Below the pieces are notes generated by a model. It did not search any database, was not told the DNA's origin, and saw only the letters and a list, made by a program, of their open reading frames with translations. Shown here piece after piece: positions 23,266-63,957 of a stretch of DNA of 64,000 nt. Source of the DNA: Proteromonas lacertae (lineage: Eukaryota); NCBI GenBank assembly GCA_002245135.1, contig NGBS01000600.1, positions 1-64,000 on the forward strand, given 5' to 3'. Position numbers and translations under genes: made by a program. How positions within the stretch are numbered: position 1 is the first letter of the stretch; the number at the start of each line of letters is the position of its first letter.

Positions 23266-26200
23266 TTATTTAATATTTAAGAATTCTTTTGATAATTCTT
23301 TCTTTTCTTCTTCTTTTAATCCATTCAACTAAATTTTACTAACTGAAGTAAATTCATTTAGAAATGATTTTAATTCTGATTTATCGATGTTTTCTTTCAC
23401 TGTTATTGACAATTCATTTAGACTATCAAACAATTTTTCATTTTCTTCTAATAATCTTAATTCTCTTTCATCTAATTCATTTCCTGATATATCTAAATCT
23501 AACAATGGTTCATAATCTTTTAATCTTTCTATTAACACTTTCAATCCTTTCTCACTCATTCCAATATCTATTTCAGTTATAATACAATTATATTCATAAA
23601 ATACTTGAAAGATTATTGATACTGTTTTCAGTAATCATTTCTACAAATCTATCCATAGCATTTACATATAATTTCTACTCCTTCATCACCAATTGGATTA
23701 TTGAATATTGATAGATATTTTACACTTTCTGGCAAACAATCCAGTAATTCTTTTAATCCTTTATAACTGATTCTATTATTTGGATAAATCAACACTGCTA
23801 ATAATTTACTTGTCTAATTAATCGAATATGAGAATCATTGATATTCATATCTATTTCATTAAAATTAAATAATATACTTGACAAATCATATTTATGATAA
23901 TACCTTTCTTTTAGCCTTTTAATACAATAATTTAAATAATAATCTATTTCTTCATCACTCCATGATAAACATTTCATTTTTATAAATGGATAGTTTTTGT
24001 TTTCTAATGATGTTGAACATATTGATTTTAATCCATTTATTCTGATATTATTTCCATTTAGATATATTTCATGACATCGTCCAATTGAATTTATTTTATT
24101 GGTTAATAATATTACACTTTCATCATCTATTGAGATATTACTCAAATTCATTTTATTGCCATATATTAACATTCTTAAATTGTTTAACAATAGTTTAAAT
24201 CCAGTATTACCAATTGGATTATCTATTTAATTATAATTATATAACATTATAATATATACTATGAATTAACAATTTCTCAATATTATCATTATTTTTCACA
24301 TAATTCATCAAATACTCTATTCCATCTGAATCTATATTATTGTTACTTATATCAAGTATGATTTTTTCATGAATATTCATCAAACCAGACAATATGTATT
24401 TCAGTCCAGTAGAAGATAAACCCATTTCTATTATATAATAAATAAAAATAATAATACTTGAACAATTTATTCTATTGTAACAATCTTTTAATAACCATAT
24501 ATGTGGAAATAAGATATTCATTCCTTCATCTCCTATCTCATTTCCATTTATTTGAAGTTCCTTAAGATTTGAAAATGATGATAAATTCGTTTCTATACTT
24601 TTGTATGTTAGGTTATTATCTAAACAATAAAAAATTATCAGATTATACTACTCAAATCTAATACTTCTATCTCTCTCAATTCATTTAATCTTAATGAAAT
24701 GAATAATTTGAAAATACTGTCATCAATACCTAAATTACTTAAATTTAGCACATTATCATTTTTGAAGTATTGTATTAATGTTGGAATGTCTTTGTCAATC
24801 AACATATCTTCTTTACATTTAATATCAATATGATTTTTGAAATAGAATATAGGAATAAGCTTTTAATCCTTCTGCATGAATATTATTGTTGCATGTAATA
24901 TCTAGCTTCTTAAGATTTGGATATTTATATAATTCTTCTGATAATAATATCATACATATATCATTTAAACACATTCCCCTAAGATTCAATTCATTTTCTT
25001 TGTTGATTAATAAATGTAGATGTGGAACTAATAATTTGAACCTTCTTGGACACATTCCATCTACTATATCAATATAATAATATAATATATAATACATGGA
25101 AGATTTATATGTTTTAATTTCATAAGAGGAATTGATTTTATAAATGATTCGATGAAATCAGAACTAGCACTACAACCAAATAAATACAATTCTTTTAGAT
25201 TTGATAATTCAATAAAATATGATAAGAATAATGATTGATGTTGATTTGGAATAGTCATACCTAAGTTAATATAAATGATCATAATAATACCAAATTGGAG
25301 TTTTGCTAAATTCATTAATTTCAAGATTCGGAACAAATAGTTTATTCCTTTCTCACACAAACAAACACAATTTGATTCTATGATAAATACTTCATCATTA
25401 TGTATATTACTATCGATATTAAATATCATTCTATCTAAATAACAGTCATTTTCTCCTTTACATTGGTGACGAATTTGAGATTTCAGTCTATCTTTTATTG
25501 AATCATCTTCTTTGAATACTTTCATCATCAATAATACTGCTAATATTCTCTCATTTGGTTTACTGTTGTAAGATTCTATCAAACTATCTCGAATATTTTC
25601 ATTCTTGTTATATTCCACATAATAGTCTCTCTGAATATCAAATGGAGTTATTTCTATTGAATAATCATTATTGAATATGATTTCTTTTCTCTCATCACAT
25701 CCCATTACACTATTCTTTGACGCTTGTAACATCTTATTCGCTTTCATCATTTCTTTTCTCAACTCTTTCAAACTCAATCTATCTTCACTCTTCACTTTCA
25801 ACATTCTATCTATCATTTCCTTCATATCATCATCACATTCTACATCTAAACTGTATTTACATCTCAGGATATTATTCATTGTTTTATAAATATTATTATC
25901 TTCATTAAATGGTAATTTCTTACAAATCATTTCATATAATATACATCCAATTGACCAAATCACACTTTTATCATTACATTCTAAACCATTCAACTCTTCT
26001 GGACTTTTAAAACACACATCATATATTCTCATATCATCTTCCTTTCTCAACGTATTTAAGTATAAATCACAGATCTTTGCATTGTTATTCTCTTCATATA
26101 TTATGTTACTACTCTTCAAATTGCTAATCACAATGTTATAATCACATAATACATCAAAAATATCACATATTGAACATATCACATTACTTATATCAGTATT

Positions 26201-26527
26201 TGAAATGGATTTATTGTGAATTATCTCTTCTAAATCCAATAAATAGTATTTTCTTCTTAATAACATCATATTATTACCGATTATTTCACAAGCAGATGGA
26301 TAGATGAAGGATAAACAACTATCAATCAAGAATGAGTTATTCTCTAAGAATTCTTTTATTCTAGCTTCTTTAACATTTTCTAAATTTAATATCTTAATAC
26401 TTTTTACATTATTCTGATGCTCTATTACTAAATCCACTTCTTTCTCGCCTTTTTCTACACTTTCTTTTATCTATTATGTATAAATCAATTAACATACTTC
26501 TACTGCATATGATAATAACGAATTCAT
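23266..26527 (-). CDS. Pseudokinase + RI-type leucine-rich repeat protein (possibly disrupted)
   Basis: Kinase fold with SNLKSSNI, CDL and KSPEE in place of HRDLK, DFG and APE. Followed by LRR exons (LDISNNNIDSDG, LDISGNELD). Apparent +1 shifts near 24862, 23800 and 23780, and an in-frame TAG at 23329. Confidence 0.75.
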
Positions 26528-26653
26528 AAAGTTATTGATGAAAGAATCGAAGAAATACATTTTCAAAATATTTTAGTCGTTTCAAATTTATGTAAATTAC
26601 ACACATTTTACATAAAAAGAAAAGAATAGAATAAATAGAATTTTAAATATTAT

Positions 26654-27334
26654 TTAAAAATCATCAGTTACATTATACTTCAAAGCTTCTGGTGGTTTTA
26701 GTTTTATACTGATAGGATCAATCTTACCAGAATGAATTTTAGTTGATAAAGATGTTACTTTTATACTGTAGTTTGATTCATGTTTGTTAAATCTCTTTGT
26801 TGGAGTATCAAAATTCAAACTTGGAATTGTATTTGAAGTATTTGGATTTAAGATACTTTTACTAATTCGACTATTACTTCGATTTCTTACAACAGAGGAT
26901 TGAGATTTTTCTTGAGTTGTCCAAAATGAATAATTACTAATCAATGAAGATCTACATAAATCACGAATGGATGGGAAATAATCAAATAATAAATAAAATA
27001 ATGGATGAACAACTAATCTCATATATTCTAATTGACTATGTGCAAACTATATAAAAATTATTATTATAATAATTTATTTATACTGTTTTTATATCAGATA
27101 TATCCATTAAATCACCATTCATTTCACAATTTGGAACACTATTTCTTTTCAAATCTTCTTCTGTCATTTCTGTTTCAGTTATTGAATTAAACCAAGTTTT
27201 ATAGATTGGAAATGGTTTGACTGGATTGTTGAGAATGGAGGTTTTGAATATTAATAATAATATTTCAATTTTATTCTCTTCACTGTCATACATTGGCTTT
27301 TTATTTGGGAAATAGTCACTATTAATTATAGTTT

Positions 27335-27371
<37 letters not shown>

Positions 27372-30300: not shown

Positions 30301-32532
30301 AGTGGATATAATTCAATTAATTTACTGTAAGTAGATTGCAATAAATTAAAGTAATATTGAGAAACAGCTGTAAATATTGGTGTATATCGATTATTATGCA
30401 ATGGCCTACAACTAATGATAGTCAAAATTGGTTTAACTCTCAAAAATGGAGATGTTGTTATATTATATAAGATTTTCCAATCAATTTCATTCATATATTG
30501 TCCTTGGTCAATTATGATTATTAATGGTTTAGTTCGTTTATACAATATTCTATCTAATAATGAGATTTCTTTTTCATCTTTCATTATATCTTCATTTACA
30601 TCAATTGGAGTAATTGGTAAAAATAAATTATGCTTCTTTATTTCATCTTTATATTCTTTCTTTTCATCCTCATCTTCTACTAATTCTATTATTTTATGTA
30701 TTAATTGGTTATAAATATAGCATCGAGTATTCATTGAATAAGTATCACCTATTGCATCTACTAAATCATAATTATTATTTATTATAAAAGACTCTAGTTC
30801 AATACATGTTAAATCACTCTTCTCATATTTTTTATTCAAAGCATTTGCTATGGTTTGAATCATTAAAGACTTTCCTGTTCCTGTATCTCCTGTTACTATT
30901 AAAGTACAAGATTCAGGGATTGGCTCGACCAATTTATATAATTGTCTTTTTATTTCACTGATTAACATCTTCATAGGAGCTGTTAAGATTATTTTGTTAT
31001 TTTCGATTTCATTATTCAAAGTGAAACTTCTTTCTATACTTTTATCTGGATAATAGGTGTAAAATACTTCAACAGCTTCACTTTTACCTTTTAAATTGAT
31101 TGGTTCATTCGCTTTGAATTTTAATTGATAATAACTATCAGCACTATTCTTTGTTGTTTTGTCAATTAATATATTTGGACAAATACTTTTATCTCGACAT
31201 TTACATGCTAATTTTTGAGCATTTTGCATCAATCTTGCTGCTGTATTTACCACATCTCCTAACACTCCATATTCTTTACGACTACCAGCTCCTAAACATC
31301 CACAATGAGCTATACCTGTTGTAATACCAACATAAGGACGATATCCTAACGATTCTAATCGATTTACTAAGGTTAATGCTGATAAAACTGCTCTTGTTGG
31401 ATCATCTTCATGAGCTAATGGAGGTAAACCAAATACAGCTAAGAGTGTACTACCTTTATCATCCACTAGGAATTTATTTAGACTACCTTCATAGTCATAT
31501 AATGAAGCTTGAACTGCTACTAATACATCTTGAACTTGTTTTAATTGCATATCTTTAATTTCGATTAATTTACTGGCTTTTAAACCGACATTTACAAATA
31601 AAATTGTCATTGTTCGAACCTCTGCTGCCCAATAAGCAGCATCTTTCTGCATGTATGGTATAACAGCTGCTGCTACAAATTTTTGCATATCTGACAAAAT
31701 CTCTTCATGTTTTTCTCTTTTCAATGATATTAATCTAATCTGTTGAGTTGAGTTTATTATTTTTACACATCCTAATGGTAATGTCGTCCCTTTCATACAA
31801 TCACTCAAATAATGCCAAGAATCAAGAGACACAACGACATCTCCTGGACCGCCTATAATAATACACATAAATAATTAATTTATATGATATATATACACTG
31901 CTCTTCACAATCAAATGCTGCTAATAAAGCAGGACCACATAATAAATATTCTAATCTGCCTAACACACCACCAACATACAATACATACGATTTACCACAT
32001 CCTATTCCACATTTAACTCGGAAAACAACACCTTCGCCAATTTTGTAGTTATGTAACTCTTTTTGTATATCTAATGCACATTGTACAGCTCTGTGAAGAG
32101 TTGTTTTCAAATCCCATTCTTCTACTGTTTCTGAACTCCACTATTAAGAGATATATATTTGAAATATACGACTATCACAACAGCATCACCTACATATTTA
32201 AATACATCACCTCCTGACTTTGTTGTTATCCTCACCAGCGATTCCCAATAACTGTTTAAATATATACTTATATCCTCTGCCCCACGAGCTCCTCTGCTAG
32301 CTACTTTTTCACTGAGATTTGTGTAACCACTTATATCGGCTAATGATGAATAAATATTAAATCATACCAAACATAACAACAGAGTCACACTTTTTAAATG
32401 ATGGAACTTTCACTTCATCCCCTGACTTTTTCGATTTTGCAAGTTGTCTAATAACACATTCTATACAACATCAGAAAATGATGTAATAATACCAGGCACG
32501 AAATCTTCATAACGAGCTAACTTCGCTTCCAT
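26654..32532 (-). CDS. ADCY10/soluble-type adenylyl cyclase (2 cyclase domains) + STAND NTPase + Cys/Asn-rich linker + degenerate class I PDE domain
   Basis: C1 has FADISGYT and KYVGDA; C2 has KFLVDDKG and GDVVNTAARLM; Walker A is GDTGTGKS. The C-terminal part has INDWDFDV, VADVIQT, LSALVKDIVHP and NNPVKPF..W. Several ~30-nt introns and one +1 shift near 28580. Confidence 0.8.
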
Positions 32533-35622: not shown

Positions 35623-38600
35623 ATGACAAATATAGGAATAGATTTAGGTTCTTATTATTATTTAGCATCTAAGCGCGAAGAGACTGGTAATGTTGAGGTT
35701 TTATCAAACAAACTAGACAAACGATTATCATTGTATAAGCTCAAAGTATAATGAATAGGACATTTTTTGCTTATTCAAAAAACAAAAAATACCATCAAGG
35801 AAAGAGTTTAGTATTATTTCCACTATATATCGCTTAGATTTCTGAAGATGTGAACAATGCTATTGTTAATGGTAAAGACTTCTTTGCAAGAAAATATAAT
35901 GATGAAGAATTTAAAATTCTACTAGAAAACTACTATCCGTACAAATTATTAAAAGATGAGGATAATCTACCTTATTTTGAAGTATTATGTATTATAATAT
36001 ACATTTATAGGTTAAGTTTAAAAATGAAAATATAAAATATACTTATAAGGATATTTACAATGCATATTTCAATGAAATTGAAGAAACAATCGCATATAAG
36101 AAATTAGAAGGTGAAAATATATCAAATCAGAAATGGATAATCAGCTATCCGCCATATTATACATCAATTCAAAGAAAAGCTTTAAAAACTTTATGTAATT
36201 TTAGACATTGTAATGATATCATAAAATGCAAAGATATCGTGAGTGAAACAGTAGCGTATGCATTATGTTATGGGTATGAAAACAATGTAAAATATGCAGA
36301 TAAATCAGAAGTACTGCTTTTAGTTGATATTGGATATTCTTGTGCAAGTGTAACATGTGTTAAATATGAGAATGTATAAATCTTATTTATATATTATTTT
36401 ATAGAATAAATGTACTATATTAGGTAATGCATATAATAGGGAAATATGCGGTAGAAATATAGACAAATTGATAGTTGATTATGTAAAAAAAGATATACAA
36501 GAAAGTGATGTATTTAAAGATAGTTATGAAACTATAAGTGTAGATAGAATATGTAATTTAAAAATCTTACAGACAATGATTTCTGTGAAAGAAGTATTGT
36601 CTATTGAAAATAGTTATAGTGTTTTTATTTACCATCTTTACAATGATAAAGACTATGAATCAACATTCAGTAGAGATGATTTTAATTCTGTTTTGAAGAA
36701 TAACAAATATGATGAAAGAATTGAATCATTATTGGATGAATGTGTGAAAAAGTGCAATATTAAAGCAAATGATATAGATGGTATTGTAATTGCAGGTGGA
36801 ACATGTAGAATTTCATTTATTCAAAATACCTTATTAAAATATATGAACAAAAAGATGGAAAAGACATGTACATTAGATAAATCAATTAATATGGAAGAGC
36901 ACATAGCATACGGTTGTAGTTATTATGGATTATTAATGAATGATATATGGAAATATGAATTAATAAATAACGATGAAGATGAGTTATTATTATCAAGTTA
37001 CAATGACATTACAAAGAAAAGAATAATAAAAATGGATAATTATTTGTCTAGATTTCTTTCTGGTTTCAGTGACACTAATATTGAAGAGAATGATAAAGAA
37101 CTAATATATGAATATTTTAAAGATGAAATTAAAATAATTGAATCAATGATTGAAAAGACTAATGATGGTTTAGACGATGAGAAAGAAATGGAAGAAGCCA
37201 ATAAGGTGAAAAATGATATGGAAAGAGATATATTTGCATTGCATCATGATTTATCTCTAATACAGAATAAGATGTTGATTGAAAATGAGAATAACTATCT
37301 ATGGAAAATAATGGAAGACTTACACAATGATAATAATATAAATTCGCTAAATTCAATAAAAGAATATGAGAATAATTTCTATCAAGAATGGGAAGAAAAG
37401 AAAAAGACGAAATTTCATTTAGCTATTCTGTTATGGTATATATATTTAGATATTTGGATATATTATATATATAGTAAACTATCAATTGTTGTGTATCCTA
37501 AACAAAAAGAAGAATATGAAAAGCAAATACTTGAATTGAATAAAGTAGATACTAAGAAGCTTCTAATGTCAAAGTGTATTACCATATGTAGTGTATATTT
37601 TATTAACATTATCTAATAAATAGAGTATAACAAATAAACAAAATGAGATTATAAATAAATTAAGAATTATAATGTATATATGTTTATCTAAAATTTATTA
37701 GTAATGATTACATTTTGGTATTAATATCATCACCTAGAAATTTTGCAGAATCAAGTAAAAAGTATATTTATAAATTAAAAGAAATGATGAAACTAATAAA
37801 TGTTGAACCATCATTAGACAATCTAAACATGTTTTACTCACAGTCTTATATAATGACACAAATGATTGAAAAATATAAAACTGCTATAATAAAATCATTG
37901 TATATTATGTTGTTTATATAAATGTAATAGAAATGAGAAATATGAAAAATGTGAATTTTTTGGAAATATTATTGTTGATTTTTCGGAAGTATTAGAGAGT
38001 ATTGAAGCGTTGAGAAATTATGTAAATGATGATAAGATTGAAAAATCTTCAGATAATTTAAAATATCTCTTTAATGAATTTATAGTATGAATAACTGTGA
38101 TAGTATCCTTAAATAGAAAGTAAACGATAGTTACCAATCAAAGAAGAATGATGTAATTTATAAGTTAGAAGAAAAAAAGTATAGTCATTATATTTCATAA
38201 ATTATAGACAATCAATTCTAAATGAAATAGCTCAAATAACTTTAGATATGCCTAAAGAGATAGAAGTGTTGAAACGTAAGGTTGAGTGTATACAAACAAA
38301 AGAAACTATTGATCTAGCAGAGTGTAAAAAGAATTACATTCAATTAAGTGGTTGTTACTCAGATACAATAGAATCAATTGATAATGAAATAATTGTATTG
38401 TTGTATGAATATAAAATAATAATAGGAGAAAAAGAAAGTACTGATTAGTGAATTAGAAAATTGCATGATAAAGGAAATAAAAGAATCTTATTTAGATGCT
38501 ATTAAAGTGATAGAAAGTAAATCCAATGTAATAGATTCATATAATAATATTAAAGTATATTATATAGTTAAACTAATAAAATTAATAGCTATTAAATGAC

Positions 38601-40411
38601 CTTGAAATTAATTATTTCGAAGAAATGACAAAAATAATGAATGATTTGATGTATAGATTATTTTATAATTTGTATATAGTAAAGAAATAAAAGACAATGT
38701 AAAAGAAATTGAAATTGTAGATAACAACATTCTGAATGAAACAAATGTAAATATTAAAGATATTAATCTCAGAATAAAAGTATGTGTATGATACTAATAA
38801 TATTATATAGCTTTTAATGGATTTAGAGAATAAATATAAACATAAATATATTGTAAAAATTGAAGAGTTAAGGAAAATTTTAAATGAAGTTGAAGAAAAT
38901 GATGAGAAAGTTATATGTATAATAAACGAATCAAACAAAACTCTTAAAGAATTGAATGAAATGAAGCTTATAGGAGTAATTGTTATATATACTGTATGGT
39001 GTAAAGATTATATTTTTTATTAGAGACTTTATGATGAGGTTGAAAGACAGAACAGAATGAATAATGAATATGTGATGAAATATATGTATATACTTTATTA
39101 TATATAATAATATTTTATAAAATAGTGAGAAATATCAAACGCTTTATGATAAAGTAAATGAGAATATAGCCTTATTTATTTCTTTTTACAGTTTCATATT
39201 GACATTTAAGGCATTTCTACAGAATAGATTTAGTATAAGAGTTAAAGCCTTTTGCAAAACAGTTGAAATTGAGTATATTAAAGTAATAGATAAAATGAAA
39301 ATAAAGATACTTGAAAAGAAGTATAAATTACTATTTGAATATTATTTAGTCCTTATTATCATGATATAATACAAGAAGAAGTAGTTGATACATTCTTTAA
39401 TCCATCTCTTTATGATCCAGAATTGCAAACTGAAAATGATGATAATCTGCCTGTAGAATGTGATGTATAATTCTAGCATTAATATAAATAATATTACCAA
39501 AACTTAATATACTTAATTTAAGTTGATTGTGGTTAGAAAAGAAAAATAATATCAAGCCTAGTGTAAAAAGCTTGATTAATCTCAATCAGTTACATTCTAA
39601 TACTCATTTTACAGGTATTATAATTGTGTTTAAAAATTATTATAAATGATATCTTTTGCATCCTGGCTGAATAGTCATTCATATGATGTATAAATGCTAG
39701 TTTTCTTATAAATTTCCATGTAATTTATTGAAATAGAATATGATATTGATTCAGTTATTGATGATTGCATTTCAGATAATGGAAATGTTTTGTTTTTCAG
39801 TTTAAGTATATACTATAAAATATATATAACATCAATAGTTGGAATGAGTGATGAAGATATGAAATATTTATGTAGTAGATTAAATACAATGACAAATGTA
39901 ACTGAGATTAACTTGACATGTATAATAATATTATAATCTTTATTTTAGTTAACTGTATAACTTCAATTGGATTGAATTATTTCTCTCGATATTTCAAGTT
40001 GTTTCCAAATTTAGAAACATTGTTAATAGGGATGAATACTATTGGTGATGGTGATTTGGATTTGTTTTCTAAAAACCTTCGTTTTATTCCTGAATTAAAG
40101 AAATTATCTTTTGCTAGTATATTTCATAATTATTATGTTAATATATAGGTTGTAGATTAGGAGATAATGCTATAAAATCGATGAGCAAGAATATCAACAA
40201 CATAAAAAAGTTTCAGGTATTGATATTGAATAGTAATGAAATAAGTGATAAAGGTGGAGAAATACTAATAGAAAATCTTCAACATTGTTGTTTATTACAA
40301 CAACTTGGTATTTCACAAAACAAATTATCAGATTATGTTGAGTTTGAAAGAAGAATGAAAGAAAATCATCCAAATAAGCAACTAGTAGTTGAAATTAAAT
40401 CTAAAAAGTGA
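35623..40411 (+). CDS. Divergent Hsp70/Hsp110-like ATPase domain + coiled coil + C-terminal RI-type LRRs
   Basis: MTNIGIDLGS, ISYPPYYTSIQRKAL, VSETVAYALCYG, LVDIGYS, ICGRNID, IAGGTCRI and EHIAYGC are Hsp70 NBD motifs. Many tiny coiled-coil exons follow, then LRRs (NTIGDGD, NEISDKGG). A single-gene model is inferred from uninterrupted exon/intron alternation. Confidence 0.65.
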
Positions 40412-49904: not shown

Positions 49905-50059
49905 AAAAGAGAAAAATAATGAAATGAGGCTTGAGTATTATTTGCCAATTTTTCATTTAATTTTGAAATAACCAAAAAAAGACCAAAAATTTACAAATCT
50001 GGGCTTGACACCAACGTATCTAGATTTTTAAATTTAGTCATTAGAAACATTTATAAATC

Positions 50060-52057
50060 ATGAGTTCAGTACCCAGAGGTCCTCCACCACGAGGCCCACC
50101 ACCTAGAGCAATACCAGGTCCACTAGCCAGAGGCGCACCAATGACTCCACCAAGAGGTCCACCAGGCCCACCACCACGTGGTATGGGTCCTTCACCATCA
50201 GGTCCTCCATCAGGTCCACCAATGGGACCTCCTTCTGGTCCTCCACCTAGATCTTTACCAAATGCTGGTCCAATAACTCCCAGAGGTCCACCACCATCAA
50301 GAGGTCCTCCAGGTCCACCTCCTCCATCAATTACACCAAGAGGACCACCTGGACCACCTCCACAAATGTCACCTAGAAGTCTACCAGGTCCTCCACCACG
50401 AATGCCTCCAGACATGAATAATCCTTCAGGTTCTCCTCCATCCAGTTCAATGGGAAATCCTCCAATTAGTAATTTAAATAATCCACCACCACCCAGAGCT
50501 GGTCCTCCACCCCGAATCGCTCCACCTCCTCCTCGTGCAGCACCACCACCATCTATCACACCAGGTGGTCCTCCAATGTCAATGAATCCACCTCCTCCTC
50601 GAATGAGTGTAACTCCACCACCGCCAAGAGCTGGTCCACCTCCACCACAACCATCTCCCTCTAATAATAGTAGTTTACCACCTGCTAGAGGTCCACCACC
50701 TTCTCGAGGTCCTCCACCATCTCGTGGACCACCTCCAATATCTGGTCCTCCTCCTTCAAGAGGACCACCACCTCCAATGTCATCATCAGCAGGTGGACCA
50801 CCACCATCTAGAGGTCCACCACCCATATCAGGACCACCACCATCTCGTGGACCACCACCAGGATTGAAAGGACCACCTATTGCTTCACCACCACCACCAA
50901 GAGGTCCAAGTTTAGTTGGTTTACAAGTAACACCTGATGGTAGAACAAATACTTCGTTAAGAGGAGGTGGTGGTGGAGTATTACCTCCACGTGGTTTACC
51001 TCCACGAGGTCCTCCACCTGGTGCTCCAACTCCATCAGTTAATATTCCTCCAAATGCTACGAATGGAATGCCTAGAGGTCCATTACCTTTACCTCGTGGA
51101 TTACCTCCTCGTGGTCCAATGAGTACAGGTCCAAATGGTTTAGGTGAACCATCTAAACCAGCTCCACCATTACCATTTGGTAGTAATAATAATGGAATGA
51201 TCGAAGGTGAAAGAGATCCAAATGGTAAATTCACAGTTCGAGAAATTCAAGAAGCTTTCCAAGCCTTTGATTTAGATAATAATAACTATATAGGAAATGC
51301 TGAAATTCGTCATGTATTAATCAATATAGGTGAACAAGCAAGTGATGATGAAATAGATGAAATGATTCGAATGGTAGATAAAGATGGTGATAACTTAGTG
51401 AGTTTTGAAGAATTCTATGCGATGGTAACAGGTGGTCAAAGTCCTCCGGCTGGTATAATGGGTGGTGCAACAGTTGGTATAAGTAATAAGACAGTAGGAG
51501 GCCAAGATGACAGTAGTAAGATGATAGAAATGAGACAAAATCGTCGATTGGCTTTACAAGAATTTAATGATGATAATAAATTCAAACCTGAATCAATCAA
51601 GAAGATTTATAAACGATATCAATCATTTGATAAGAATCCAAATGGTTTAGTGAATTACAATGAATTCTGTGATATATTCCAAGTAGAAGCAAGTCCAATA
51701 ATTGAGAAATTGTTTGGAATGTTTGATAAAGAAAAGAGTGGAGAGATTGATTTGAAAGAATTCTTAATCAGTTTGAATAACTTTAGTGGAGCAAGTAAAG
51801 ATGAAAGACTTCGTTTTGCTTTCTTAGTATTTGATGAAGAAGGTAATGGAGTAATAAGTAAAGTAGAATTAATGCGAATATTGAAAGCTAATCACATGGC
51901 AACTTCTGATGCTGAAGTGAAACGAAAAGCTGAAACAATAATGAGTCAAGCTGATAAAGATGGAGATGGTGTAATAACATTTGATGAATTTGTAGTAGTG
52001 AGTAAGAAATATCCAAATATTCTATTTCCAACCTATGCTTCAATCGAAAAGAGTTGA
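50060..52057 (+). CDS. Proline-rich (PPRGPPP) N-terminus fused to calmodulin-like and calcineurin-B-like EF-hands
   Basis: About 370 aa of Pro/Gly/Arg repeats. EF-hands DLDNNNYIGNAE, DKDGDNLVSFEE, DKEKSGEIDLKE, DEEGNGVISKVE and DKDGDGVITFDE. Intronless. Confidence 0.88.
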   Translation: MSSVPRGPPPRGPPPRAIPGPLARGAPMTPPRGPPGPPPRGMGPSPSGPPSGPPMGPPSGPPPRSLPNAGPITPRGPPPSRGPPGPPPPSITPRGPPGPPPQMSPRSLPGPPPRMPPDMNNPSGSPPSSSMGNPPISNLNNPPPPRAGPPPRIAPPPPRAAPPPSITPGGPPMSMNPPPPRMSVTPPPPRAGPPPPQPSPSNNSSLPPARGPPPSRGPPPSRGPPPISGPPPSRGPPPPMSSSAGGPPPSRGPPPISGPPPSRGPPPGLKGPPIASPPPPRGPSLVGLQVTPDGRTNTSLRGGGGGVLPPRGLPPRGPPPGAPTPSVNIPPNATNGMPRGPLPLPRGLPPRGPMSTGPNGLGEPSKPAPPLPFGSNNNGMIEGERDPNGKFTVREIQEAFQAFDLDNNNYIGNAEIRHVLINIGEQASDDEIDEMIRMVDKDGDNLVSFEEFYAMVTGGQSPPAGIMGGATVGISNKTVGGQDDSSKMIEMRQNRRLALQEFNDDNKFKPESIKKIYKRYQSFDKNPNGLVNYNEFCDIFQVEASPIIEKLFGMFDKEKSGEIDLKEFLISLNNFSGASKDERLRFAFLVFDEEGNGVISKVELMRILKANHMATSDAEVKRKAETIMSQADKDGDGVITFDEFVVVSKKYPNILFPTYASIEKS

Positions 52058-52494: not shown

Positions 52495-55400
52495 ATGAAA
52501 ATAAATGATGAAAAATATGAAACTATTGGAAAAGGTGGTTTTAGCAAAGTGTGCTTAGTAAGACATAATGGTTTAAAGCTAGCTAGAAAAGAAATTAAAA
52601 TAAAAGAAGGATATTTAGAGACAATAAAAAGGGAAATAAAGATTTTAGAAGAGTTGAGAGATCGAAATATCTTGATACTAAAAGATAGTGTAATAATTGA
52701 AGAAGAAAATATATGTTATATATACACAGAGTATTTAAAAAATGGTGATTTATGGAGAATAATATATGAAAAGAAAGTGAAAAAAGAAGATTTCTCAATT
52801 TATGTATATATTATTACAAATATGTTATATATAGGAGATATACAGTTACATGAGTGATTTAATAAATGGTTTAAAGTATATTCATAACAAAGGGATAATT
52901 CATCGAGATTTAAAACCCGGAAATATCTTAGTAGGAGATCATAATGAATTAATAATCAGTGATTTTGGTTTAGCAACTGAAAATGAAAATAGTGATGATG
53001 TATTGAAAGGAACTTATAATTATATGGCTCCTGAATTATATCAAACCAGCCCTCCTCCATATTCAACAGCAAGTGATATATTTTCATTGGGTTGTGTATT
53101 ATATGAATTATACACCTTAAGAATGGCTTTTGAAGGAAAGAACAAAAGAGAGATTATAAATAATATATTTTTAAAAGAAGAATTAGTTTTTACGAGAGTT
53201 AGTGGAGTTGAAATTCCTCAAATAGAAACATTAATAAAGCGTATGTTAGAGAAAGATGTAAATAAAAGAATAAAACTTGATGAAATAGAAGAAGAAATAA
53301 ACAAAATATCAAACACTCCTCCTGTTCCTTCTGTAAGTGATTTATCATTTTCTTCACCATTAATATCTGAAGCTTCAACCGAATTAGCTAGTTTTTCATC
53401 ATATTATTCATTAATTTTATCGTTTTATTTAGAAGGTGGTTATGTAGAAGGTAAAACATTGAATGAAATCATTAAAATGAGCAATAAAGAATTCTTATCC
53501 TATTGGAAAATTGAATTAACAATTGTATAGTAATATATTTATTTATTTAAATCATAGGTGTTATTTCCTTCAATAAATCAAGAAAATCCTCCATATAGTG
53601 AAGAACATGCCAAAGAATTAATTAAGAACAAAGAAATATATCTAAAAGAATTACATATACTGATTGATTTAATTGATCATAACAACCTGGATACAATCAA
53701 CTCAATAATCAAGTTCTTATACTCAATAGAAGATGAAGAATATATTGAAAAACTTACAAAAATAAAAAAATACATTGAAAATTATACAAAAGGATGTGAA
53801 AGTTATAATTCAGTAAATATATTATCTATTATTTCTTTATAGAAGAATTATATAAGATCAATAGAATATCTTGTAACTGCTTTAAATGATTCATCTACAT
53901 ATAATGAAAAATTTAAATGCAAATTCAAAATTGGTGAAAGTTATCGAAATCTAGTATAAATTTTGTGTATAAATGAATGTATAGAATCAATTTAAAGAAT
54001 CTAAAGAGCGTTTTGAATCAGCATTAGTTTTTGCATTTACAAATAGAGAAAAATGTGATTGTTATTTAAATATTGGTTTGTGCAGTGCAAATGTTGAAGA
54101 ATATGAACAAGCTATAAAATATTTTAAAACTGCATTTGAGAATCTCTATGAATTAGAACATCTTAACCCTTTAGATGAAGAATCTTTGCAGTATATTAAC
54201 AGAATGAAATATTTATGTAACAACAATATAGCAATGTGTTATGGCAATCTAGTATAACCATAAAAATATTCATATTATAGGGTGATTTAAATAATTCACT
54301 AGAACATTTTAAGTCTGCATTCCAATTTACTTCTAAAAATGAAGAAAAATACGAATGTTGTTTCACTATCAGTAATTTTTATGAACTAACAGTATTATAC
54401 TTGATATAAATGATAATATAGAGAGAAATTAAAAAAGCAATTGAATATTTAGAATCTGCTTTAGACTTTGCTTCCACAAATGAAAAGATTTACTTATGCA
54501 ACTTTAGAATAGGTGTTTGTGATTTGAAGATTGTATGATTATAAACAATTAATATTATTATAGAGGGAATATGAAAAAGCAAAAGATTATTTTGAATCTG
54601 CATTAAATCTTGCATTAACAGATGAAGAGAATTATAGTTGCAGTTTAAATATTGGTTTATGCTATTTTAATATTGTATAGTAGTATCTAATTTACTTTTA
54701 TTATAGAAAGAGTATGAAAAATCATTAGATCATTATAAATCTGCATTAGGATTTGCAACTATAAAGAAACAAAAATATATGTGTTTTATGAATTTAGGTG
54801 ATTGTTATTTGGGTTTTGTATATATTTCAATTGTTTTATAATAGAATGATAATGAAAACTCATTTAATTGTATTACTTCGGCAATTGACTTTGCTGAATC
54901 AGATGAAGATAGATGCTTATATTATATATATATGTGTAAATATTTATTTAAACTAGGTAATATTGAAGAAGCTATAGATCAATACAATAATGCATTAGAA
55001 TTAGCTAAAAGTGATTATGAGAGATTTAGATGTAATAATGAAATGGGTAAATGCTATTTTGATATTGTATATATATGAATGTGATTATAATGAAAATAGA
55101 AAGATTATGAAGAATCAAAGAAATATTTGAATGAAGCAAGTAAATACATATCCAGTGTTGAAGATGAATTTCAAAGGATAGAATTTGAAGAAATGTTGAA
55201 AAAAGTGAATAATGGAACAAGTGGAGATACTTCTTCTTGTGATTCTAAAATTCTAAATTCTTATTTACGAGGTGGTTTTATAGAAGGTAAAACATTAAAA
55301 GAAAAAGGAGAAGGAGGTTTTAGCAAAGTGTGTTTAGTTGAACATAATGGTTTAAAGCTACATAGAAAAGAAATTAAAATAAAAGAAGGATATTTAGAGA

Positions 55401-58400
55401 CAATAAAAAGGGAAATAAAGATTTTAGAAGAGTTGAGAGATCGAAATATCTTGATACTAAAAGATAGTGTAATAATTGAAGAAGAAAATATATGTTATAT
55501 ATACACAGAGTATTTAAAAAATGGTGATTTATGGAAGCTGATAGATAAAAAGAAGAAAAGTAAAGAAGATTTCTCAGTAAATGTATATGTGATGATATAT
55601 TAATGATATTTAGGAAATGATGATGTATATGAAAGATTTAATAAATGGTTTAAAGTATATTCATAACAAAGGGATAATTCATCGAGATTTAAAACCCGGA
55701 AATATCTTAGTAGGAGATCATAATGAATTAATAATCAGTGATTTTGGTTTAGCAACTGAAAATGAAAATAGTGATGATGTATTGAAAGGAACTTATAATT
55801 ATATGGCTCCTGAATTATATCAAACCAGCCCTCCTCCATATTCAACAGCAAGTGATATATTTTCATTGGGTTGTGTATTATATGAATTATACACCTTAAG
55901 AATGGCTTTTGAAGGAAAGAACAAAAGAGAGATTATAAATAATATATTTTCAAGAGCAGAATTAGATTTTTCGAAAATAAGAGGTGAAAGAATACCTGAA
56001 ATAGAAACATTAATAATGCGAATGTTAGAGAAAGATGTAAATAAAAGAATAAAACTTGATGAAATTGAAGAAAAAATCAGATTATTGTCTTTTACAAATG
56101 GTGAAAATCAATTAAATGAAAATGAAACATTATCTCTTTCTTCATCATATTCATCTCATTTTTCCTTTTATGAATATTTTTCTATTATTATTATTTTCTA
56201 TTTAGAAGGTGGTTGTATAGCAGGTGAAACATTAAAAGAAATAAGTGAAATGAGTGAAGAAGAATTCAATTCATTTTGGAGAGATAAATATTCATCTGTA
56301 TATTTATTTCTCTATTATTACAATAGATATTTTTTCCATCAATCAATCAAGAAAATCCTCCATATACTAAAGAAGATGCAGTTGAATTAAAAAATAATAA
56401 AGATAAATTTCTAAATGAATTACATAAAGTAATTGATTTAATTGAAAATAACAACGAACATCTAATCAACTCAATAATGAATTTCTTAGACTCAATAGAA
56501 GATAGAGAATATATGGAGAAACTTTGTTATAATCATCAATCCCTTACTTTAGTTTTCTATTTAGAAAATGGTTGTATAGCAGGTAAATCATTAAAAGAAA
56601 TAAGTGAAATGAGTGAAGAAGAATTCAATTTATTTTGGAAAGATGAATATTCATCTGTATATTTATTTCTCTATTATTATAATAGTTGTTATTTCCTTCA
56701 ATAAATCAAGATGGTCGACTATTTTCATTAAAAGATTCAAAAGTATTAAAAATTAATAAACATTTATATTTGGATGATTTAATGAGAGTTATTAATTTAC
56801 TCATCAACAGAAATATGAATTATAATAAATTAGTCATATTAGAGTTTTACAAAATAATTAATGAGATTATAGATGATGATAAAACAATTGAAAATTATGT
56901 AGATGGTATTTTATTCTCATATATACCATCTGATTCTATAGTATTTATGTTAATTATTATATTTTTAACAGGTAAAAGAAAGAGTAAAAATGAGTAGAAA
57001 TGAGATAGATTTAGTTGTACAACATAAAAATGACATAAAGAAAGTTAAAGTGATAAATATTGAAGGAATAAAAGAAGATAATATAATCAATATTTGTGAG
57101 GATTACTCTTTATTGGTAGAATATTCTTCATCATTCATATATCCTTCAAGAATATTTCAGTTTAGAGGTGTGGGTGAGTATATGATAATATATAGAGAAT
57201 ATTATTACACTGATTTAGAGGAGGTAATACATAATAAATCATTATCAAGAAGTGATATATTTAGTGTATTATGTTCAGTATGTGATATATTAATAGTATT
57301 AAATGAATATGTTTTAGAAGTTGGTAATTTAAAGAGTAGTAACATACTATATGATAATTATGGTGAAATAAAACTATGTGACTTATGTATGAATTTAATA
57401 AGAAAAATAGAAGATATGAGAATATATGATATCTGCTTCAAAACCCCAGAAGAGTTAAATGGTTTAGAATGTAATGATAAAAGTGTGATTTGGTCAATTG
57501 GCTGTATATTATATGAGATGATAAACAAGAAATTACCATTTAATGAAGATGATAATATGAATAAAACAAAAGAGAATATTATGAGATGTAAATACAGTTT
57601 AGATGTAGAATGTGATGAGATGATGAAACAAATAATAGAAAGAATGTTAAAAGTGAAGAGTGAGGATAGATTGAGTTTAAAAGAGTTGAGAAAAGAAATG
57701 AAAAAAATGAATGAGATATTAAGAGATGAAGATAGTAATTTGATGATATTAAGTGATAAAAAACAGGTTCTATTCAATAATGATAAAAATATTGTTACAA
57801 TGCCAATAATATATCCACCAGAGTATTATATAGAATGTGATAAATATGACAGTATATATAATATATTATTAAATATAATAATAATCTTCCAATAGATATT
57901 AGAGATCATTTTATAGAATTATATAATAATAAACCAAATGAAAGAGTATTATCTATTTTATTAGTGATGAAGTTATACAAATGGGATTATTCAATCCAAG
58001 ATAAAGTGAAATTTCAAATTCATCACCTATGTAAAGAAAGAGGTAGAAATTGTTATTTAGATAGAATTATATTTGATATTTATACTTACGATAATGATAA
58101 GGACATAATCGAAATTGATTCTGAATGTATTTGTTTATGTGAAAAAGGCATGAATTATTTCTTCAGAATATTGAAACTTATTAATCCAATAAAACTCAAT
58201 TTTGGTATAAATTTGATTAATTATATTGATTTAGGTGTTAATCTTCCAGTGAATAATCAACTATTATTTGGGTCATATTTTTCTTTACTACCAAATATAC
58301 GAGAGTTGAATTTTCATAATTGTCATATTAATACAAAGTTTATAGAATCTTTTGTAAAATCCTTACAGTTTATGAAATTAAAACATGTAGATTTTCGATG

Positions 58401-58445
58401 TATTTATTTTTCTTTTTCTTTTTCTTTTTCTTTTTCTTTTTCTTT

Positions 58446-58477
<32 letters not shown>

Positions 58478-61400
58478 TTTCTTTTTCTTTTTCTTTTTCT
58501 ATATTGTTATGAAATAGTCAATCCAATTGGTCCAATTGGTTTTAGATTATTACTTCCCTATTTACATTTATTAATAAACAAGAATAATAAATTAAATCTT
58601 GAAAGAATGAGTTTAAATGATGAATCAATGATGTTACTATCAGAAGAATTATATAAATATCCATACATTGAAAAGATCAATATAGAGAATAATAAGAACA
58701 TTCATATAGAAGGATTAAAACAACTATTTTCAGTATTTTCCTATTCAAAAATAGAATATGATACAAATGGAATTAATTTGAAAGATGTTATAGGAGATGA
58801 TAATCATCAAGAAGATTTGGATGAAGTGAATATAGATAGAGTAAAAGATAATAGGAATATAAAGATGCAAAAAGATATAATTGAAAATGTAGTTTTTAAT
58901 TCTCCTTTATCACCTTCTTCTCATATTAATAATCCTCCTCACAGTCATTCATCATCGCCAATAGATAATTCATCCTATCCAGCATATGATCGTACAATAA
59001 TTTTGTCATTCTATTTAAATTGTGGATTAATAAATAAAAGATCTTTGAAAGAAATAGCTGAAATGAACAGTAAAGAATTGTCATACTTTTGGAATGACGA
59101 TTTAATACCTGTATATTCTGTATTTGTAATGCATAATAGATGTTCTTTCCTTCAATCAATCAAAAAGAACCTCCATATACTCAAGAAGACGCAACAGTCT
59201 TAAAGAATAAAAAAGATAAATTTCTAAATGAATTACATAAAGTAATTGATTTAATTGAAAATAACAACAAAGATCTAGTTAATTCAATAATCAAGTTCTT
59301 ATACTCAATAGAAGATGAAGAATATATCGAAAAACTTACAAAAATAAAAAAATACATTGAAAATTATACAAAAGGATGTGAAAGTTATAATTCAGTAAAT
59401 ATATTATCTATTATTTCTTTATAGAAGAATTATATAAGATCAATAGAATATCTTGTAACTGCTTTAAATGATTCATCTACATATAATGAAAAATTTAAAT
59501 GCAAATTCAAAATTGGTGAAAGTTATCGAAATCTAGTATAAATTTTGTGTATAAATGAATGTATAGAATCAATTTAAAGAATCTAAAGAGCGTTTTGAAT
59601 CAGCATTAGTTTTTGCATTTACAAATAGAGAAAAATGTGATTGTTATTTAAATATTGGTTTGTGCAGTGCAAATGTTGAAGAATATGAACAAGCTATAAA
59701 ATATTTTAAAACTGCATTTGAGAATCTCCTATGAATTAGAACATCTTAACCCTTTAGATGAAGAATCTTTGCAGTATATTAACAGAATGAAATATTTATG
59801 TAACAACAATATAGCAATGTGTTATGGCAATCTAGTATAACCATAAAAATATTCATATTATAGGGTGATTTTAATGATTCACTTAGAACATTTTAAGTCT
59901 GCATTACAATTCACTTCTAAAAATGAAGAAAAATACGAATGTTGTTTTCACTATCAGTAATTTTTATGAACTAACAGTATTATACTTGATATAAATGATA
60001 ATATAGAGAGAAATTAAAAAAGCAATTGAATATTTAGAATCTGCTTTAGACTTTGCTTCCACAAATGAAAAGATTTACTTTATGCAACTTTAGAATAGGT
60101 GTTTGTGATTTGAAGATTGTATGATTATAAACAATTAATATTATTATAGAGGGAATATGAAAAAGCAAAAGATTATTTTGAATCTGCATTAAATCTTGCA
60201 TTAACAGATGAAGAGAATTATAGTTGCAGTTTAAATATTGGTTTATGCTATTTTAATATTGTATAGTAGTATCTAATTTACTTTTATTATAGAAAGAGTA
60301 TGAAAAATCATTAGATCATTATAAATCTGCATTAGGATTTGCAACTATAAAGAAACAAAAATATATGTGTTTTATGAATTTAGGTGATTGTTATTTGGGT
60401 TTTGTATATATTTCAATTGTTTTATAATAGAATGATAATGAAAACTCATTTAATTGTATTACTTCGGCAATTGACTTTGCTGAATCAGATGAAGATAGAT
60501 GCTTATATTATATATATATGTGTAAATATTTATTTAAACTAGGTAATATTGAAGAAGCTATAGATCAATACAATAATGCATTAGAATTAGCTAAAAGTGA
60601 TTATGAGAGATTTAGATGTAATAATGAAATGGGTAAATGCTATTTTGATATTGTATATATATGAATGTGATTATAATGAAAATAGAAAGATTATGAAGAA
60701 TCAAAGAAATATTTGAATGAAGCAAGTAAATACATATCCAGTGTTGAAGATGAATTTCAAAGGATAGAATTTGAAGAAATGTTGAAAAAAGTGAATAATG
60801 GAACAAGTGGAGATACTTCTTTTTGTAATTTTCAAATTGTCAATTTCTATTTGCATAATGGATGTATAGGAAATAAAACATTAAAAGAAGTAAGTGAAAT
60901 GGATGAAGAACAATTCAGTTGGTTTTGGGATGATGATTATTTATCTGTATATTATATTATTATATATTTATCTACTTCATTATAGATATTATTCCCTTCA
61001 ATTAATCAAGAATATCCTGCATTTTCATTAGAGGATTCTAAAGTTTTAAAATCAAATAAAGACAAGTTTTTACCATATTTAATGAAAATAGTCAGTTTAC
61101 TGATAAAAAGAAATGATGATGTGAAAGAAAAGAAATCGTTAATTGCTGAAAGAATGAATGGTGAATCAATAATAAACATTAAAGAATTATTAGTAGATAT
61201 AGAAATTCCAGAATTAATAAAGTATATAAAAAGTAAATATGGCGAAGTGAATCTGAGTAATATTGGATTAGATGATGTGTTATTTAAATCATTCATTTCG
61301 TTGAGATCAAATGAATTGAAAGAAATAGAAGTTTTTGATATAAGCAGTATAAATTAATTATTTTAATATTACATAGATAATAATCTAACATATAAAAGTA

Positions 61401-63957
61401 TTCAAACACTTATAAATAGTTTATCATTTTTCACCAATGTTAAAGAAGTTCAATTATTTGGTAATAGAATAGGAGATTTAGGGATGCTTGTATTATCTCC
61501 ACATTTGAATTTACTAAAAGTGTTATTATGATAAAATAAACTGCAGTAGTATAATTGATATGATTTTAATATGAAATAGAAATGGGATTATCATCGATTG
61601 GATTAAGATATTTAGTGGATGGATTGAAGAATAGTCATGAAAAGATAATACTTGATATAAGTGAAAATAATATTGATTCAGATGGAATAGAATACTTGAT
61701 GAATAATATGAAAGAAAATGACAATATTGAAAAGTTATTAATTCATGGTATATTTTTATATTTATATTATAATAAACAATAGATAATCCAATTAAAGATA
61801 TTGGATTTGATTTATTGTTAGAGAAGTTGAATATGTTAGTTTATTGTCATGAAATGGATTTGAGTAATATAATAATAAATGATGAAAGTGTGTTATTATT
61901 AACAAACCAAATATATTCAATAAAAAGATGTTATACAATAAATATGAATGGAAATGGTGTAAGTATGAATAGATTAAAATCAATATGTTCAAAATCATTA
62001 GAAAGTGAAGAATATCCATTTATTGAGATGAAATGTAAAGACTGGAGAAATGAAGAATTAGAATCTTATTTGAATTATTGTATAAAGAAGAAGAGAAGAG
62101 ATAATAGAAGATATGATTTTTCAAATTTAACACTCAATGATTCACATATGTCCTTAATAAAGCAGATGAAATATTCCGAGATTGATTTATCAAATAATGA
62201 TATTAGTAGTAAAGGATTAAGAGAATTAACAAATTCTTTTACAAGACAATCAATATTTGTTTCAATCCATAACAATGAAATTGGAGATGAAGGAGTAGAA
62301 ATAATATGCAAATATATTGACAAATTTGTAGAAAGAGATGAAAAAGAAAATCCCAAATCATTAAATCTATGTAGTATATATTTAATCATGAAATATAATC
62401 ATATATATTTGAATAGAAATAGGAATGAGTGAGAAAGGATTAAGAATGTTAATAGAAAGATTAAGAGACTATTATCCATTGAAAGAAATAAATCTAGAAA
62501 GTAATAAATTTAGTGATAAAAAATCAGAGTTTGAAAGAATAAAAAGTGATAGAAAATTAAATACAGAATATAATAAAGAAAGAATGAATATACTATTATC
62601 TAATTATAGCGGAGGGGGAAATAATGGTGGAAGAAGATTAGGTGGTGGTGGAAAAATGGGAAATGGAAATGGAAATGGAGGTGATGGAAATAGAACAGCT
62701 TTATTTTATACTAATTATTCACCAGCTCTTCCTTCAAGTAAATCTTTTTATTTATACAATGCTCCTCTTCAGTATAAAACATTAACAGAAATAAGTGATA
62801 TGGATTTTGAAGAATTTAATATGTATTGGAGAGATAAATTTTTATATGTATTTAGATAATATGTTTAAGTTAATATAATAGGTATTATTTCCAACAATTG
62901 ATCAAGATGATCCAAAATTTCCAATAGAAGATTCAATTGAATTAATAAACCAGAAAGATAAATTCATTGGATGTATAAGAAAGATATTTAATTTATTGAA
63001 GAAAGAAAATGAAGGCAGAAAAGAAAACCATTTATTTATAATCGAATTATACAAATTTATTTCAAAGAATATTAACAGTAAAGAAAAAACAAAGAACTTC
63101 TTAATTGATGATATTATATTTACATATCTAATATGTCCAACTCTAGTATTTTTATTGTTTTAATAGTATAGATAAAATCAGGATTAAACAAAAATAGTAA
63201 TGAAACAGATTTACAACTCCAATTTGAAAGAAAAAATAAAATAATGAAAATAATAAATGTTGAAAAAATAAAAAAAAATAGGAGAAATGATTTTACAATA
63301 AAAAACAGTCTGTTGTGTAAGTATTGTAATACTAATACCTGCCAATTTAGTGTTTTTGAATTGAGTGTTAAAGGTGGATATATGTTAGTGTGGAGAGATT
63401 TTTATAATAGAGATTTAAAGAGAATGAATAAATTAAATCTGGATATTTCATTTATTGTTTTAGAATCAGTAAAATTATGCAAAATTTTAATATCTTTACA
63501 AAGTAAAAGAATGATAATATACAATTTAAAAACATCTAATATAATAATTGATAATGATGGTAAACTAAAACTATGTGATTTGTTTCTTAATAATTTACGA
63601 TATTCAGATGATTTAACAATCGAAGATATCTGTTATAAAAGCCCTGAAGAATTATGCGGATATGAGTGTAATGATAAAAGCATAATTTGGATTTTAGGTT
63701 GTATATTATATGAAATATTAACCTATAAATTACCATTTAATAAAGAAGATAATATCGAAAAAACAAAAGATAATATAAGGAGATGTAGATATGAAGAAGA
63801 TTTATTAAATAATAATTTGATGAAAGAAGTAATAAGTGAAATTTTTGTTATTAAGTATGTAAATAGAATAAGTTTAGAAGATTTGAAAAATAAAATGGAG
63901 AGTATATTTGATTCTACATTAAAAATAGTTGATAATTACAATGTAGTTAATATTTGA
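52495..63957 (+). CDS. Modular mega-gene: kinase-X-TPR-X'-kinase-X-X-pseudokinase-LRR-X-TPR-X-LRR-X-pseudokinase
   Basis: ORF pieces join through ~30-nt GT-AG introns. Two intact NEK-like kinases (GxGGFS, HRDLKPGN, DFG, APE), two pseudokinases (GNLKSSN and YNLKTSN, CDL), TPR-like and RI-LRR exons. +1 shifts at 59728, 59883, 59947, 60080 and ~61520. Confidence 0.7.
52525..55950. repeat. Near-identical kinase duplication (~52525-53170 and ~55315-55950)
   Basis: Long exact nucleotide matches across both kinase exons; the intron and flanks differ. Confidence 0.9.
53700..60820. repeat. ~1.5-kb TPR block duplication (~53700-55235 and ~59282-60820), introns included
   Basis: Identical antisense ORFs at 55026 and 60612 (offset 5,586). 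Introns are identical between the copies. Confidence 0.93.
58406..58500. repeat. (TCTTTT)n microsatellite inside an intron
   Basis: Visible hexamer run in the intron beginning near 58400. Confidence 0.9.

Follow-up and report, generated by a model that had tools for sequence, protein, structure and literature searches.

An unnamed helical domain, probably related to the OGFr N-terminal domain, as a site of module recombination in a predicted giant gene of Proteromonas lacertae

The predicted giant gene and its copies of domain X

A stretch of 64,000 nucleotides from Proteromonas lacertae (assembly GCA_002245135.1, contig NGBS01000600.1), here termed the window, has a predicted single spliced gene at 52495..63957 on the + strand. 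This giant gene is ~11.5 kb in length and would encode ~3,450 amino acids (aa). An unnamed helical domain, here called X, occurs in it as six full copies and a truncated one. The copies are interspersed with protein kinases (K), pseudokinases (PK), tetratricopeptide repeat (TPR) blocks and leucine-rich repeat (LRR) regions, in the order K1-X1-TPR1-X2'/K2-X3-X4-PK1-LRR1-X5-TPR2-X6-LRR2-Gly-rich-X7-PK2. The X copies are demonstrably a site of module recombination, and X is probably a degenerate derivative of the opioid growth factor receptor N-terminal domain (OGFr_N, PF04664). All gene models in the window are computational and the introns are predicted.

The window is AT-rich and eukaryotic, with a GC content of 22-30% except for one proline-rich gene, and with short GT-AG introns. 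A ciliate-type genetic code was rejected, since the long frames stay open in the standard code. When spliced, the giant gene has 2,184 stop-free codons (52495-59727) and a further 1,163 open codons that begin at 60080 and run up to the stop codon (63957). The ~97 codons that separate these two runs (59727/60080) are in the second TPR block, where four additional single bases (~59728, 59883, 59945 and 60079) disrupt the frame. Every extra base is a repeat of the adjacent base, in a tract that apart from these bases hardly differs from the first TPR block. Extra bases that duplicate their neighbours are the pattern of unpolished long-read errors. The four frame breaks are likely to be assembly errors, although real frameshifts are possible.

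All seven copies of X are on the + strand. Copy 1 is at 53408..53776 (intron 53525-53557), the truncated copy 2 at 55243..55303, copy 3 at 56181..56539 (intron 56298-56326), copy 4 at 56540..56904 (intron 56657-56685), copy 5 at 58994..59358 (intron 59111-59139), copy 6 at 60830..61204 (intron 60947-60985) and copy 7, which is preceded by a glycine-rich linker, at 62731..63100 (intron 62848-62881). The FYL/SYL motifs start at 53423, 55259 (truncated copy), 56196, 56555, 59009, 60845 and 62746, within ~15 nt of the positions given in a preliminary description of this DNA. The six introns reported there are found at exactly the same coordinates. They start with GTA, end with TAG, are 29-39 nt in length and in phase 0, and share one column when the six spliced copies are aligned (28-58% identity, 115-120 columns). 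The domain had been given a size of ~90 aa; the shared core is ~80 aa, and copies 1, 3 and 5 and several relatives reach ~105-110 aa.

Half-profiles of X recover exactly 6 + 1 sites in the six-frame window, with the next best match at E 0.11, and a deeper X profile finds nothing further in the window. E values of 1e-21 to 1e-33 were obtained for the full copies, from which the profile had itself been built; the truncated copy, which was absent from profile building, scores E 7e-6. Residues kept across the family are Y7 and L8 (17/17), M24 and W33 (16/17), P43 (11/11), and Q47, D56 and K64 (11/12). Two other assignments were rejected. The Walker A motif GxxxxGK[ST] of P-loop NTPases, which follows a strand in an alpha/beta fold, is present in 3 of 20 aligned sequences, and at this place the model has helices and a short hairpin, and weak RhoGAP rows (E 0.01-0.03) were dismissed as generic helices.

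Outside the window, a profile built from the window copies and run over 1.84 billion representative proteins finds 13 clusters at E<=0.001. Ten of these were looked up, and all are from Logan assemblies and unnamed. Two of the 13, P0003 and P0004, as well as the cluster mate P0016, cross the intron site uninterrupted and in the same register as the splice. As these proteins come from other assemblies and read through the junction, the predicted X splice is independently supported. The remaining 11 matches have one half of X only: eight stop at profile position 36-42 and three start at 40-45, as expected if the same intron is present in those genes. A kinase is N-terminal to X in 6 of the 13 clusters and also in P0016, and kinase-X is the commonest context. 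The architecture of P0016 is kinase-X-Y-X and that of P0003 is kinase-X-Y-Y. Y is a second unnamed domain, Trp-rich and ~85 aa in length, found twice in P0003 (~265-440) and once between the X copies of P0016 (~280-360), with no Pfam match in either protein. In P0007, P0010 and P0015 the kinase motifs have decayed and the X half that these proteins hold is retained.

Other searches for X gave no relatives. Word-index protein searches gave 0/465 for exon 56327-56656 and 0/7,991 for the X alignment against longer proteins, and a search with the P0003 region gave only P0003 itself among 48 candidates. DNA scans found no X in viral contigs (0/45 stretches, and no pattern matches), in metagenomes (0/289) or in phage genomes; two loci (2/592) from a DNA scan were dropped, as only the kinase part matched and the best X match was E 0.67. 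No usable match was found in Atlas, the PHROGs gave only rows at E>=0.04, and the PDB searched by sequence gave only bZIP helices at E>=0.17. X is a small family, a lineage-restricted helical domain that is unnamed.

The kinase K1 is at 52495..53290 (+), with Pfam Pkinase matches of E 9e-37 and 1.5e-11 in its two exons. Its Gly loop, AxK, HRDLKPGN, DFG and APE motifs are intact. The motifs are also intact in K2 (55304..56075, +), which has exact tracts of 173, 316 and 44 nt in common with K1. Both kinases have the Gly loop, AxK lysine, HRD, DFG and APE of active Ser/Thr protein kinases, and are predicted to be active. PK1 (56972..57733, +; Pkinase E 2e-20) has no Gly loop or HRD, and its DFG is changed to DLC. 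PK2, with the stop codon, is at 63172..63957 (+; Pkinase E 1.5e-12). Gly loop, HRD and DFG are missing from PK1, from PK2 and from a paralog at 23300..26560 on the - strand, which has a pseudokinase followed by a continuous LRR region and no X copy. The frame of the paralog is broken at least once, near 24830.

TPR block 1 (53843..55235, +) is composed of exons with phase-0 introns on either side: six have 111 nt and two are longer, at 222 and 267 nt. The one exon scanned has a TPR_1 match of E 1.4e-4, which is under the curated cut-off. TPR block 2 (59425..60821, +) is near-identical to block 1, introns included, and the two differ by a frame-preserving cluster of substitutions. The first part of the LRR-type region (57896..58720, +) has a weak LRR match of its own (E 0.85), and its DNA is 70-74% identical to that of the LRR-bearing paralog (24861-26496). 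An intron in this part, at 58400-58517, is unusually long (118 nt), has a TTTTTC repeat and is not present in the paralog. The second part (61201..62510, +) has an LRR_6 match of E 0.02 and 72% DNA identity to the paralog at 23474-24791. No NB-ARC or ROC-COR match was found in the giant-gene exons scanned.

The preliminary description had placed X at module junctions. All seven copies are found there, with the refinement that they sit within one predicted long reading frame and not between separate genes. Eight of the module junctions are inside open exons and five have an intron. The alternatives to be weighed in this report overlap in part, and the first of them is that the array is an assembly artefact, or that separate genes were misjoined by the intron calls. 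The near identity of the TPR blocks, the computational nature of the intron calls and the five intron-bearing junctions are compatible with such an error. Yet eight junctions are read through without splicing, and the intron that precedes the pseudokinase recurs in the paralog. The X copies around the two TPR blocks have diverged, the blocks themselves differ by substitutions that keep the frame, and P0016 displays kinase-X-Y-X as one uninterrupted protein. An artefact is considered very improbable.

Recombination at the copies of X

Copy 3 is a hybrid, with resemblance to copy 4 in the first exon and the intron (28 of 29 intron bases are the same) and to copy 5 in the second exon. The break is between spliced nt 115 and 118, at the intron (81 informative sites, maximum chi-square 49.2, 0/20,000 permutations). 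Copy 2 ends after GKTLKE and then reads in frame into the Gly loop of K2, with the fusion at ~55303. Copy 5 has a 57-nt exact tract in common with copy 3, and from 59284 it is the same as copy 1 except for one base. The near-identical TPR tract begins inside copies 1/5 and stops at the start of copies 2/6.

The LRR region of the giant gene is split between 58720 and 61201 by ~2.4 kb of X5-TPR2-X6. At the equivalent place the paralog has 70 nt and no X. The simpler reading would be that an X-TPR-X block was inserted into the LRR region. Insertion is favoured because a deletion between two X copies would leave one X. The suggestion, already made in the preliminary description, that X supplies homology for shuffling is thus supported by the hybrid copy 3, by the fusion inside copy 2 and by the X-bounded block inside the LRR array. 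The X copies are demonstrably a site of module recombination.

A mechanism can be proposed in which the X copies provide DNA homology, and a crossover at the shared phase-0 intron would rebuild a whole X in frame and move the intervening modules. Since each segment between successive X introns has a phase-0 intron at the shared site on either end, recombination of any copy with any other should yield an in-frame product and a complete X.

Several findings count against a special role of X. The single-break test for copy 5 is non-significant (p 0.09). Six of the 13 tract edges are inside the kinase, in the exact K1/K2 tracts outside X, and conversion is therefore not X-specific. Between X copies dN/dS is 0.39-1.02, a rough estimate that indicates weak constraint. 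The other seven of the 13 edges are in X, an enrichment of p 0.007 when set against 20% of the gene and of p 0.035 when duplicated sequence is the background. This test is weak and is not relied on: four edges are within X by definition, the edges are paired, and copies 2 and 6 were widened by 13-14 nt to take in one edge.

This raises the question of whether X is a passenger, copied beside modules that duplicate by unequal crossing over and acting as a folded spacer only, with the 3' half perhaps decaying. Such a role would agree with the dN/dS values and the truncated copy. It would also agree with the four frame breaks of TPR block 2 and at least one in the paralog, and with the pseudokinase and LRR region that the paralog has without X. 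On the other hand, all six full copies are open despite their 28-58% identity, residues are conserved family-wide, and X is retained where the kinase has decayed. The extra bases, moreover, each repeat a neighbour inside a near-identical duplicate. A passenger role is held to be unlikely.

Relation of X to the OGFr N-terminal domain

X is not a member of OGFr_N (PF04664) but probably shares ancestry with it. A reference set of 137 OGFr loci was collected by the motif HxxIQWLFP; all 15 proteins tested from the set are PF04664 and passed the gathering score of 22 bits. In hhalign comparisons, X aligns to PF04664-type profiles with a score of 30.6-32.9, a probability of 63-72% and a pairwise E of 3e-5 to 7e-5 over 61-62 columns, an alignment that covers the first ~61 residues of X. 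Column shuffles score 10-11 +/- 2-2.5, with maxima of 16.8 (of 100) and 20.0 (of 60). The maximum among 46 decoy families is 17.6, and the real X-OGFr score is ~8 standard deviations above the decoys. With the 14 outside X sequences alone the probability is 63% and the alignment is lengthened to 102 columns; with the intron insert left in, the probability falls to 41%. The X profile was also run in reverse on 1,212 decoy and 135 OGFr open reading frames, and OGFr sequences took 48 of its 50 highest scores.

The OGFr model (predicted local distance difference test, pLDDT, 97) has nine helices. The X model (pLDDT 60), which was built on copy 1 with the intron read through as an insert, has seven, matching in order and spacing, and the last helix is missing. 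There is no X counterpart of the OGFr C-terminal helix 137-145, with its invariant Trp. A blind Foldseek search of viral structures gave no significant match; among its 23 weak matches, a Marseillevirus OGFr ranked fourth and had the highest TM-score, 0.47. In 8oik_A and 9hlz_b, the regions matched by the X model are also those matched by the OGFr model, at middling Z (4.7 and 5.6 for X, 6.7 and 6.4 for OGFr). No clear PDB relative was found for either model: by fold, X has no PDB match at E<=0.001, the best among the matches listed being Z 5.8 over 58 residues. No solved OGFr_N structure was found by sequence or Foldseek search.

As a separate observation, the OGFr model can be aligned with Rv1873 (2jek_A) over 122 of 140 residues (Z 7.8, root mean square deviation 3.7), tied with RopB (Z 8.1). 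A distant OGFr link to the Rv1873 family (DUF1810) is possible from the models, with no support at the sequence level.

The OGFr positions kept in X are F7 (15/17), P43 (11/11), F42 (10/11), P55 (11/12) and N99 (7/11). Those replaced are E32 (1/17), H35 (0/17), Q39 (0/9), W40 (0/11), H98 (0/11), R102 (0/11) and R105 (2/11). Within the OGFr motif E-x2-H-[DN]-[YF]-I-Q-W-L-F-P, only L (7/11), F (10/11) and P (11/11) are kept in X. The motif H-N-x2-R-x2-R is also not found in X, where the alignment of that half is uncertain. The absence of the HxYIQW core, which had been pointed out from the DNA sequence, is accordingly confirmed, and the loss reaches the second conserved motif as well. The resemblance to OGFr noted at the same time holds as probable ancestry, from the profile probability, the helix order and the top TM-score of the viral OGFr; it does not hold as membership.

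A number of points weigh against the OGFr link. Pfam gave no OGFr_N match at E<=1 or E<=10 for the exon pieces, for read-through copies 1 and 6, or for the uninterrupted P0003, P0004 and P0016, and no OGFr protein is among the 13 library matches to X. Scaled to ~25,000 families, the pairwise E becomes ~1, for a family chosen by eye beforehand. The C-terminal half of X alone is non-significant against OGFr (the real score is equalled or exceeded by 24, 8 and 6 of 100 shuffles). The top OGFr scores in the reverse search come from one family and are at most 11.7 bits (17.3 bits for a viral one), and collection of the OGFr set by motif builds in conservation at positions 35-43. The Marseillevirus match itself has E 3.8, a probability of 0.16 and a root mean square deviation of 7.0 with a low-confidence model, and Foldseek scoring also takes in sequence.

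Perhaps X is then an unrelated, lineage-specific helical domain, and the 61-residue OGFr likeness is chance or convergence; shuffling and docking could still hold. The lack of a Pfam, PHROG, PDB or Atlas assignment for X would fit, as would the scaled E, the non-significant second half and the loss of all the OGFr-defining polar residues. Chance is harder to reconcile with a score so far above the 46 decoy families that is reproduced with the 14 outside sequences, with OGFr as the top TM-score in a blind fold search, and with the finding that the residues kept are the structural ones. An unrelated origin is considered rather unlikely.

Given shared ancestry with OGFr_N, X is likely to be a non-catalytic, disarmed relative, because structural residues are kept and polar ones are replaced. 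X might instead keep a remodelled OGFr pocket and, on sensing a modification or small ligand (an ADP-ribose derivative, for instance), switch the attached kinase. OGFr_N is fused to NADAR, ubiquitin hydrolase, PP2C and UBA domains in viral/bacterial loci (L125, L121, L043, L124 and L129), and such fusions, seen among the 15 OGFr proteins scanned, would suit a sensor. So would the kinase-X context and the conserved polar residues that X has of its own. However, the His, Gln, Trp and Arg of the would-be pocket are replaced, the last OGFr helix with the invariant Trp is without counterpart, and no established OGFr_N ligand was found in the accessible part of the OGFr literature. A sensor role appears distinctly unlikely. 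The X domain family is real and carries no name; it probably derives from OGFr by degeneration, and we infer its function at the protein level.

Proposed function and comparison with known systems

The explanation proposed as a whole is that X is an OGFr_N-derived, non-catalytic domain, predicted to be a docking module that links repeat sensors to kinases, with copies that cross over in frame. This combination is tentative and is given slightly less than an even chance. An ancestor with the OGFr_N fold would have given rise to the lineage-restricted X, with polar chemistry lost and the scaffold kept. X may first have been a C-terminal partner of a kinase, and would now connect kinases, active as well as dead, with TPR and LRR sensors. 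By its architecture and its family-specific conserved residues, X is most likely a non-catalytic docking domain. X may bind X or the neighbouring kinase, and target binding by the TPR or LRR modules would then cluster active kinases with pseudokinases; on the evidence of the architecture, this clustering is about evenly balanced between holding and failing.

Death-fold adaptors cluster partners in innate immune signalling. Examples from kinase signalling are the CARD of RIPK2, the death domains of IRAK, and the CARD and PYD of NLR proteins. Like the death-fold adaptors, or the DIX domains of stramenopile, alveolate and rhizarian (SAR) protists in the available text of PMC12077222, X is a small domain common to kinases, pseudokinases and repeat sensors, and the docking model is based on this likeness. 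X has no significant match to a death fold or to DIX by sequence or structure. A death-fold check with the low-confidence X model gave only 2mn4 and 8ym5, at E 7.5-8 and TM 0.23-0.24, and no death fold was in the top 50 of the other PDB fold search.

The setting of the giant gene is likely to be defence or non-self recognition. A bolder proposal is that the OGFr fold became, in a protist lineage, a homotypic adaptor devoid of catalysis, comparable to the death domain but of independent origin, and that its intron-split copies double as hinges, with new in-frame kinase/TPR/LRR strings arising between them to diversify the receptors of a unicellular immune system. This is a speculation, and a doubtful one. 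Self-association of X, if it occurs, would make the domain a new class of adaptor in the defence signalling of unicellular eukaryotes.

Four other loci of the window may be mentioned. At 2587-12969 (-) there is an intronless frame of 3,461 codons, in which tandem repeats of 1,083 nt are near-identical and EGF-like domains are C-terminal; it is likely to encode a surface protein. A gene at 27329-31874 (-) has a nucleotide cyclase and an AAA-type ATPase (E 5e-6 and 4.5e-7), with a weak phosphodiesterase match downstream; it presumably resembles a STAND-type cyclase. At 37566-40408 (+) a coiled-coil-like gene is followed by LRR exons (39079-40408), and has no X copy (best E 0.34). The locus at 50057-52054 (+) is intronless, with a proline-rich N-terminus and several EF hands, and is 43% GC in a window of 25% GC. 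No transposon gene was found among the window open reading frames scanned.

With a GC content of ~25% and introns of 25-45 nt, the window resembles AT-rich, Blastocystis-type stramenopiles; in Blastocystis, introns are 30 bp in human subtypes and tortoise isolates are 21-23% GC (main text of PMC12129017). Kinases, LRRs and the term opioid do not appear in that main text. OGFr is likewise absent from the main text of a survey on NAD+/ADP-ribose systems of viruses (PMC9503650). No published description of X or of an OGFr-kinase repeat gene was found in the OGFr, protist-genome and shuffling literature, as represented by main texts, few of them from subscription journals.

OGFr_N is found in human OGFR/OGFRL1 and in bacterial and giant-virus proteins. 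X resembles it in the FY-G-(G)K/R-T-L-x-E-I and (L)FP motifs and the next Pro, in the modelled order and spacing of seven helices, and in fusion to other signalling domains. It differs in the replaced HxYIQW and HNxxRxxR, in the missing last helix, in scores below every Pfam threshold, in a length of ~80-110 aa as opposed to 145-180 aa, and in the occurrence of up to seven repeats per chain. OGFr ancestry gives no ready mechanism for X, because the function of OGFRL1 is largely unknown according to the available text of PMC11062026. X keeps the scaffold and drops the conserved polar residues, and in this way separates structural from likely functional OGFr positions and names residues for testing.

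At base resolution, the locus further illustrates how whole signalling modules can be exchanged in frame when a globular domain is repeated and split by a symmetric intron. In the Tetrahymena LRR genes with 90-bp exons, a uniform intron phase likewise permits in-frame unequal crossing over. There, however, the unit is one LRR, the introns are in phase 2 and a retrotransposon is linked (available text of PMC6564038), whereas here a globular domain is split by a phase-0 intron. The NB-ARC-TPR and ROCO-LRR candidate immune receptors of Ectocarpus, as described in the available text of PMC3341825, are similar in having mostly one TPR per exon, signs of recombination, and sensor repeats joined to signalling domains, all in an organism of protist grade. 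Ectocarpus shuffles single repeat exons and has long introns; the giant gene moves whole modules bounded by X and has introns of 30 nt. Whole-module swapping is thus different from the single-repeat exon shuffling of brown algae and ciliates.

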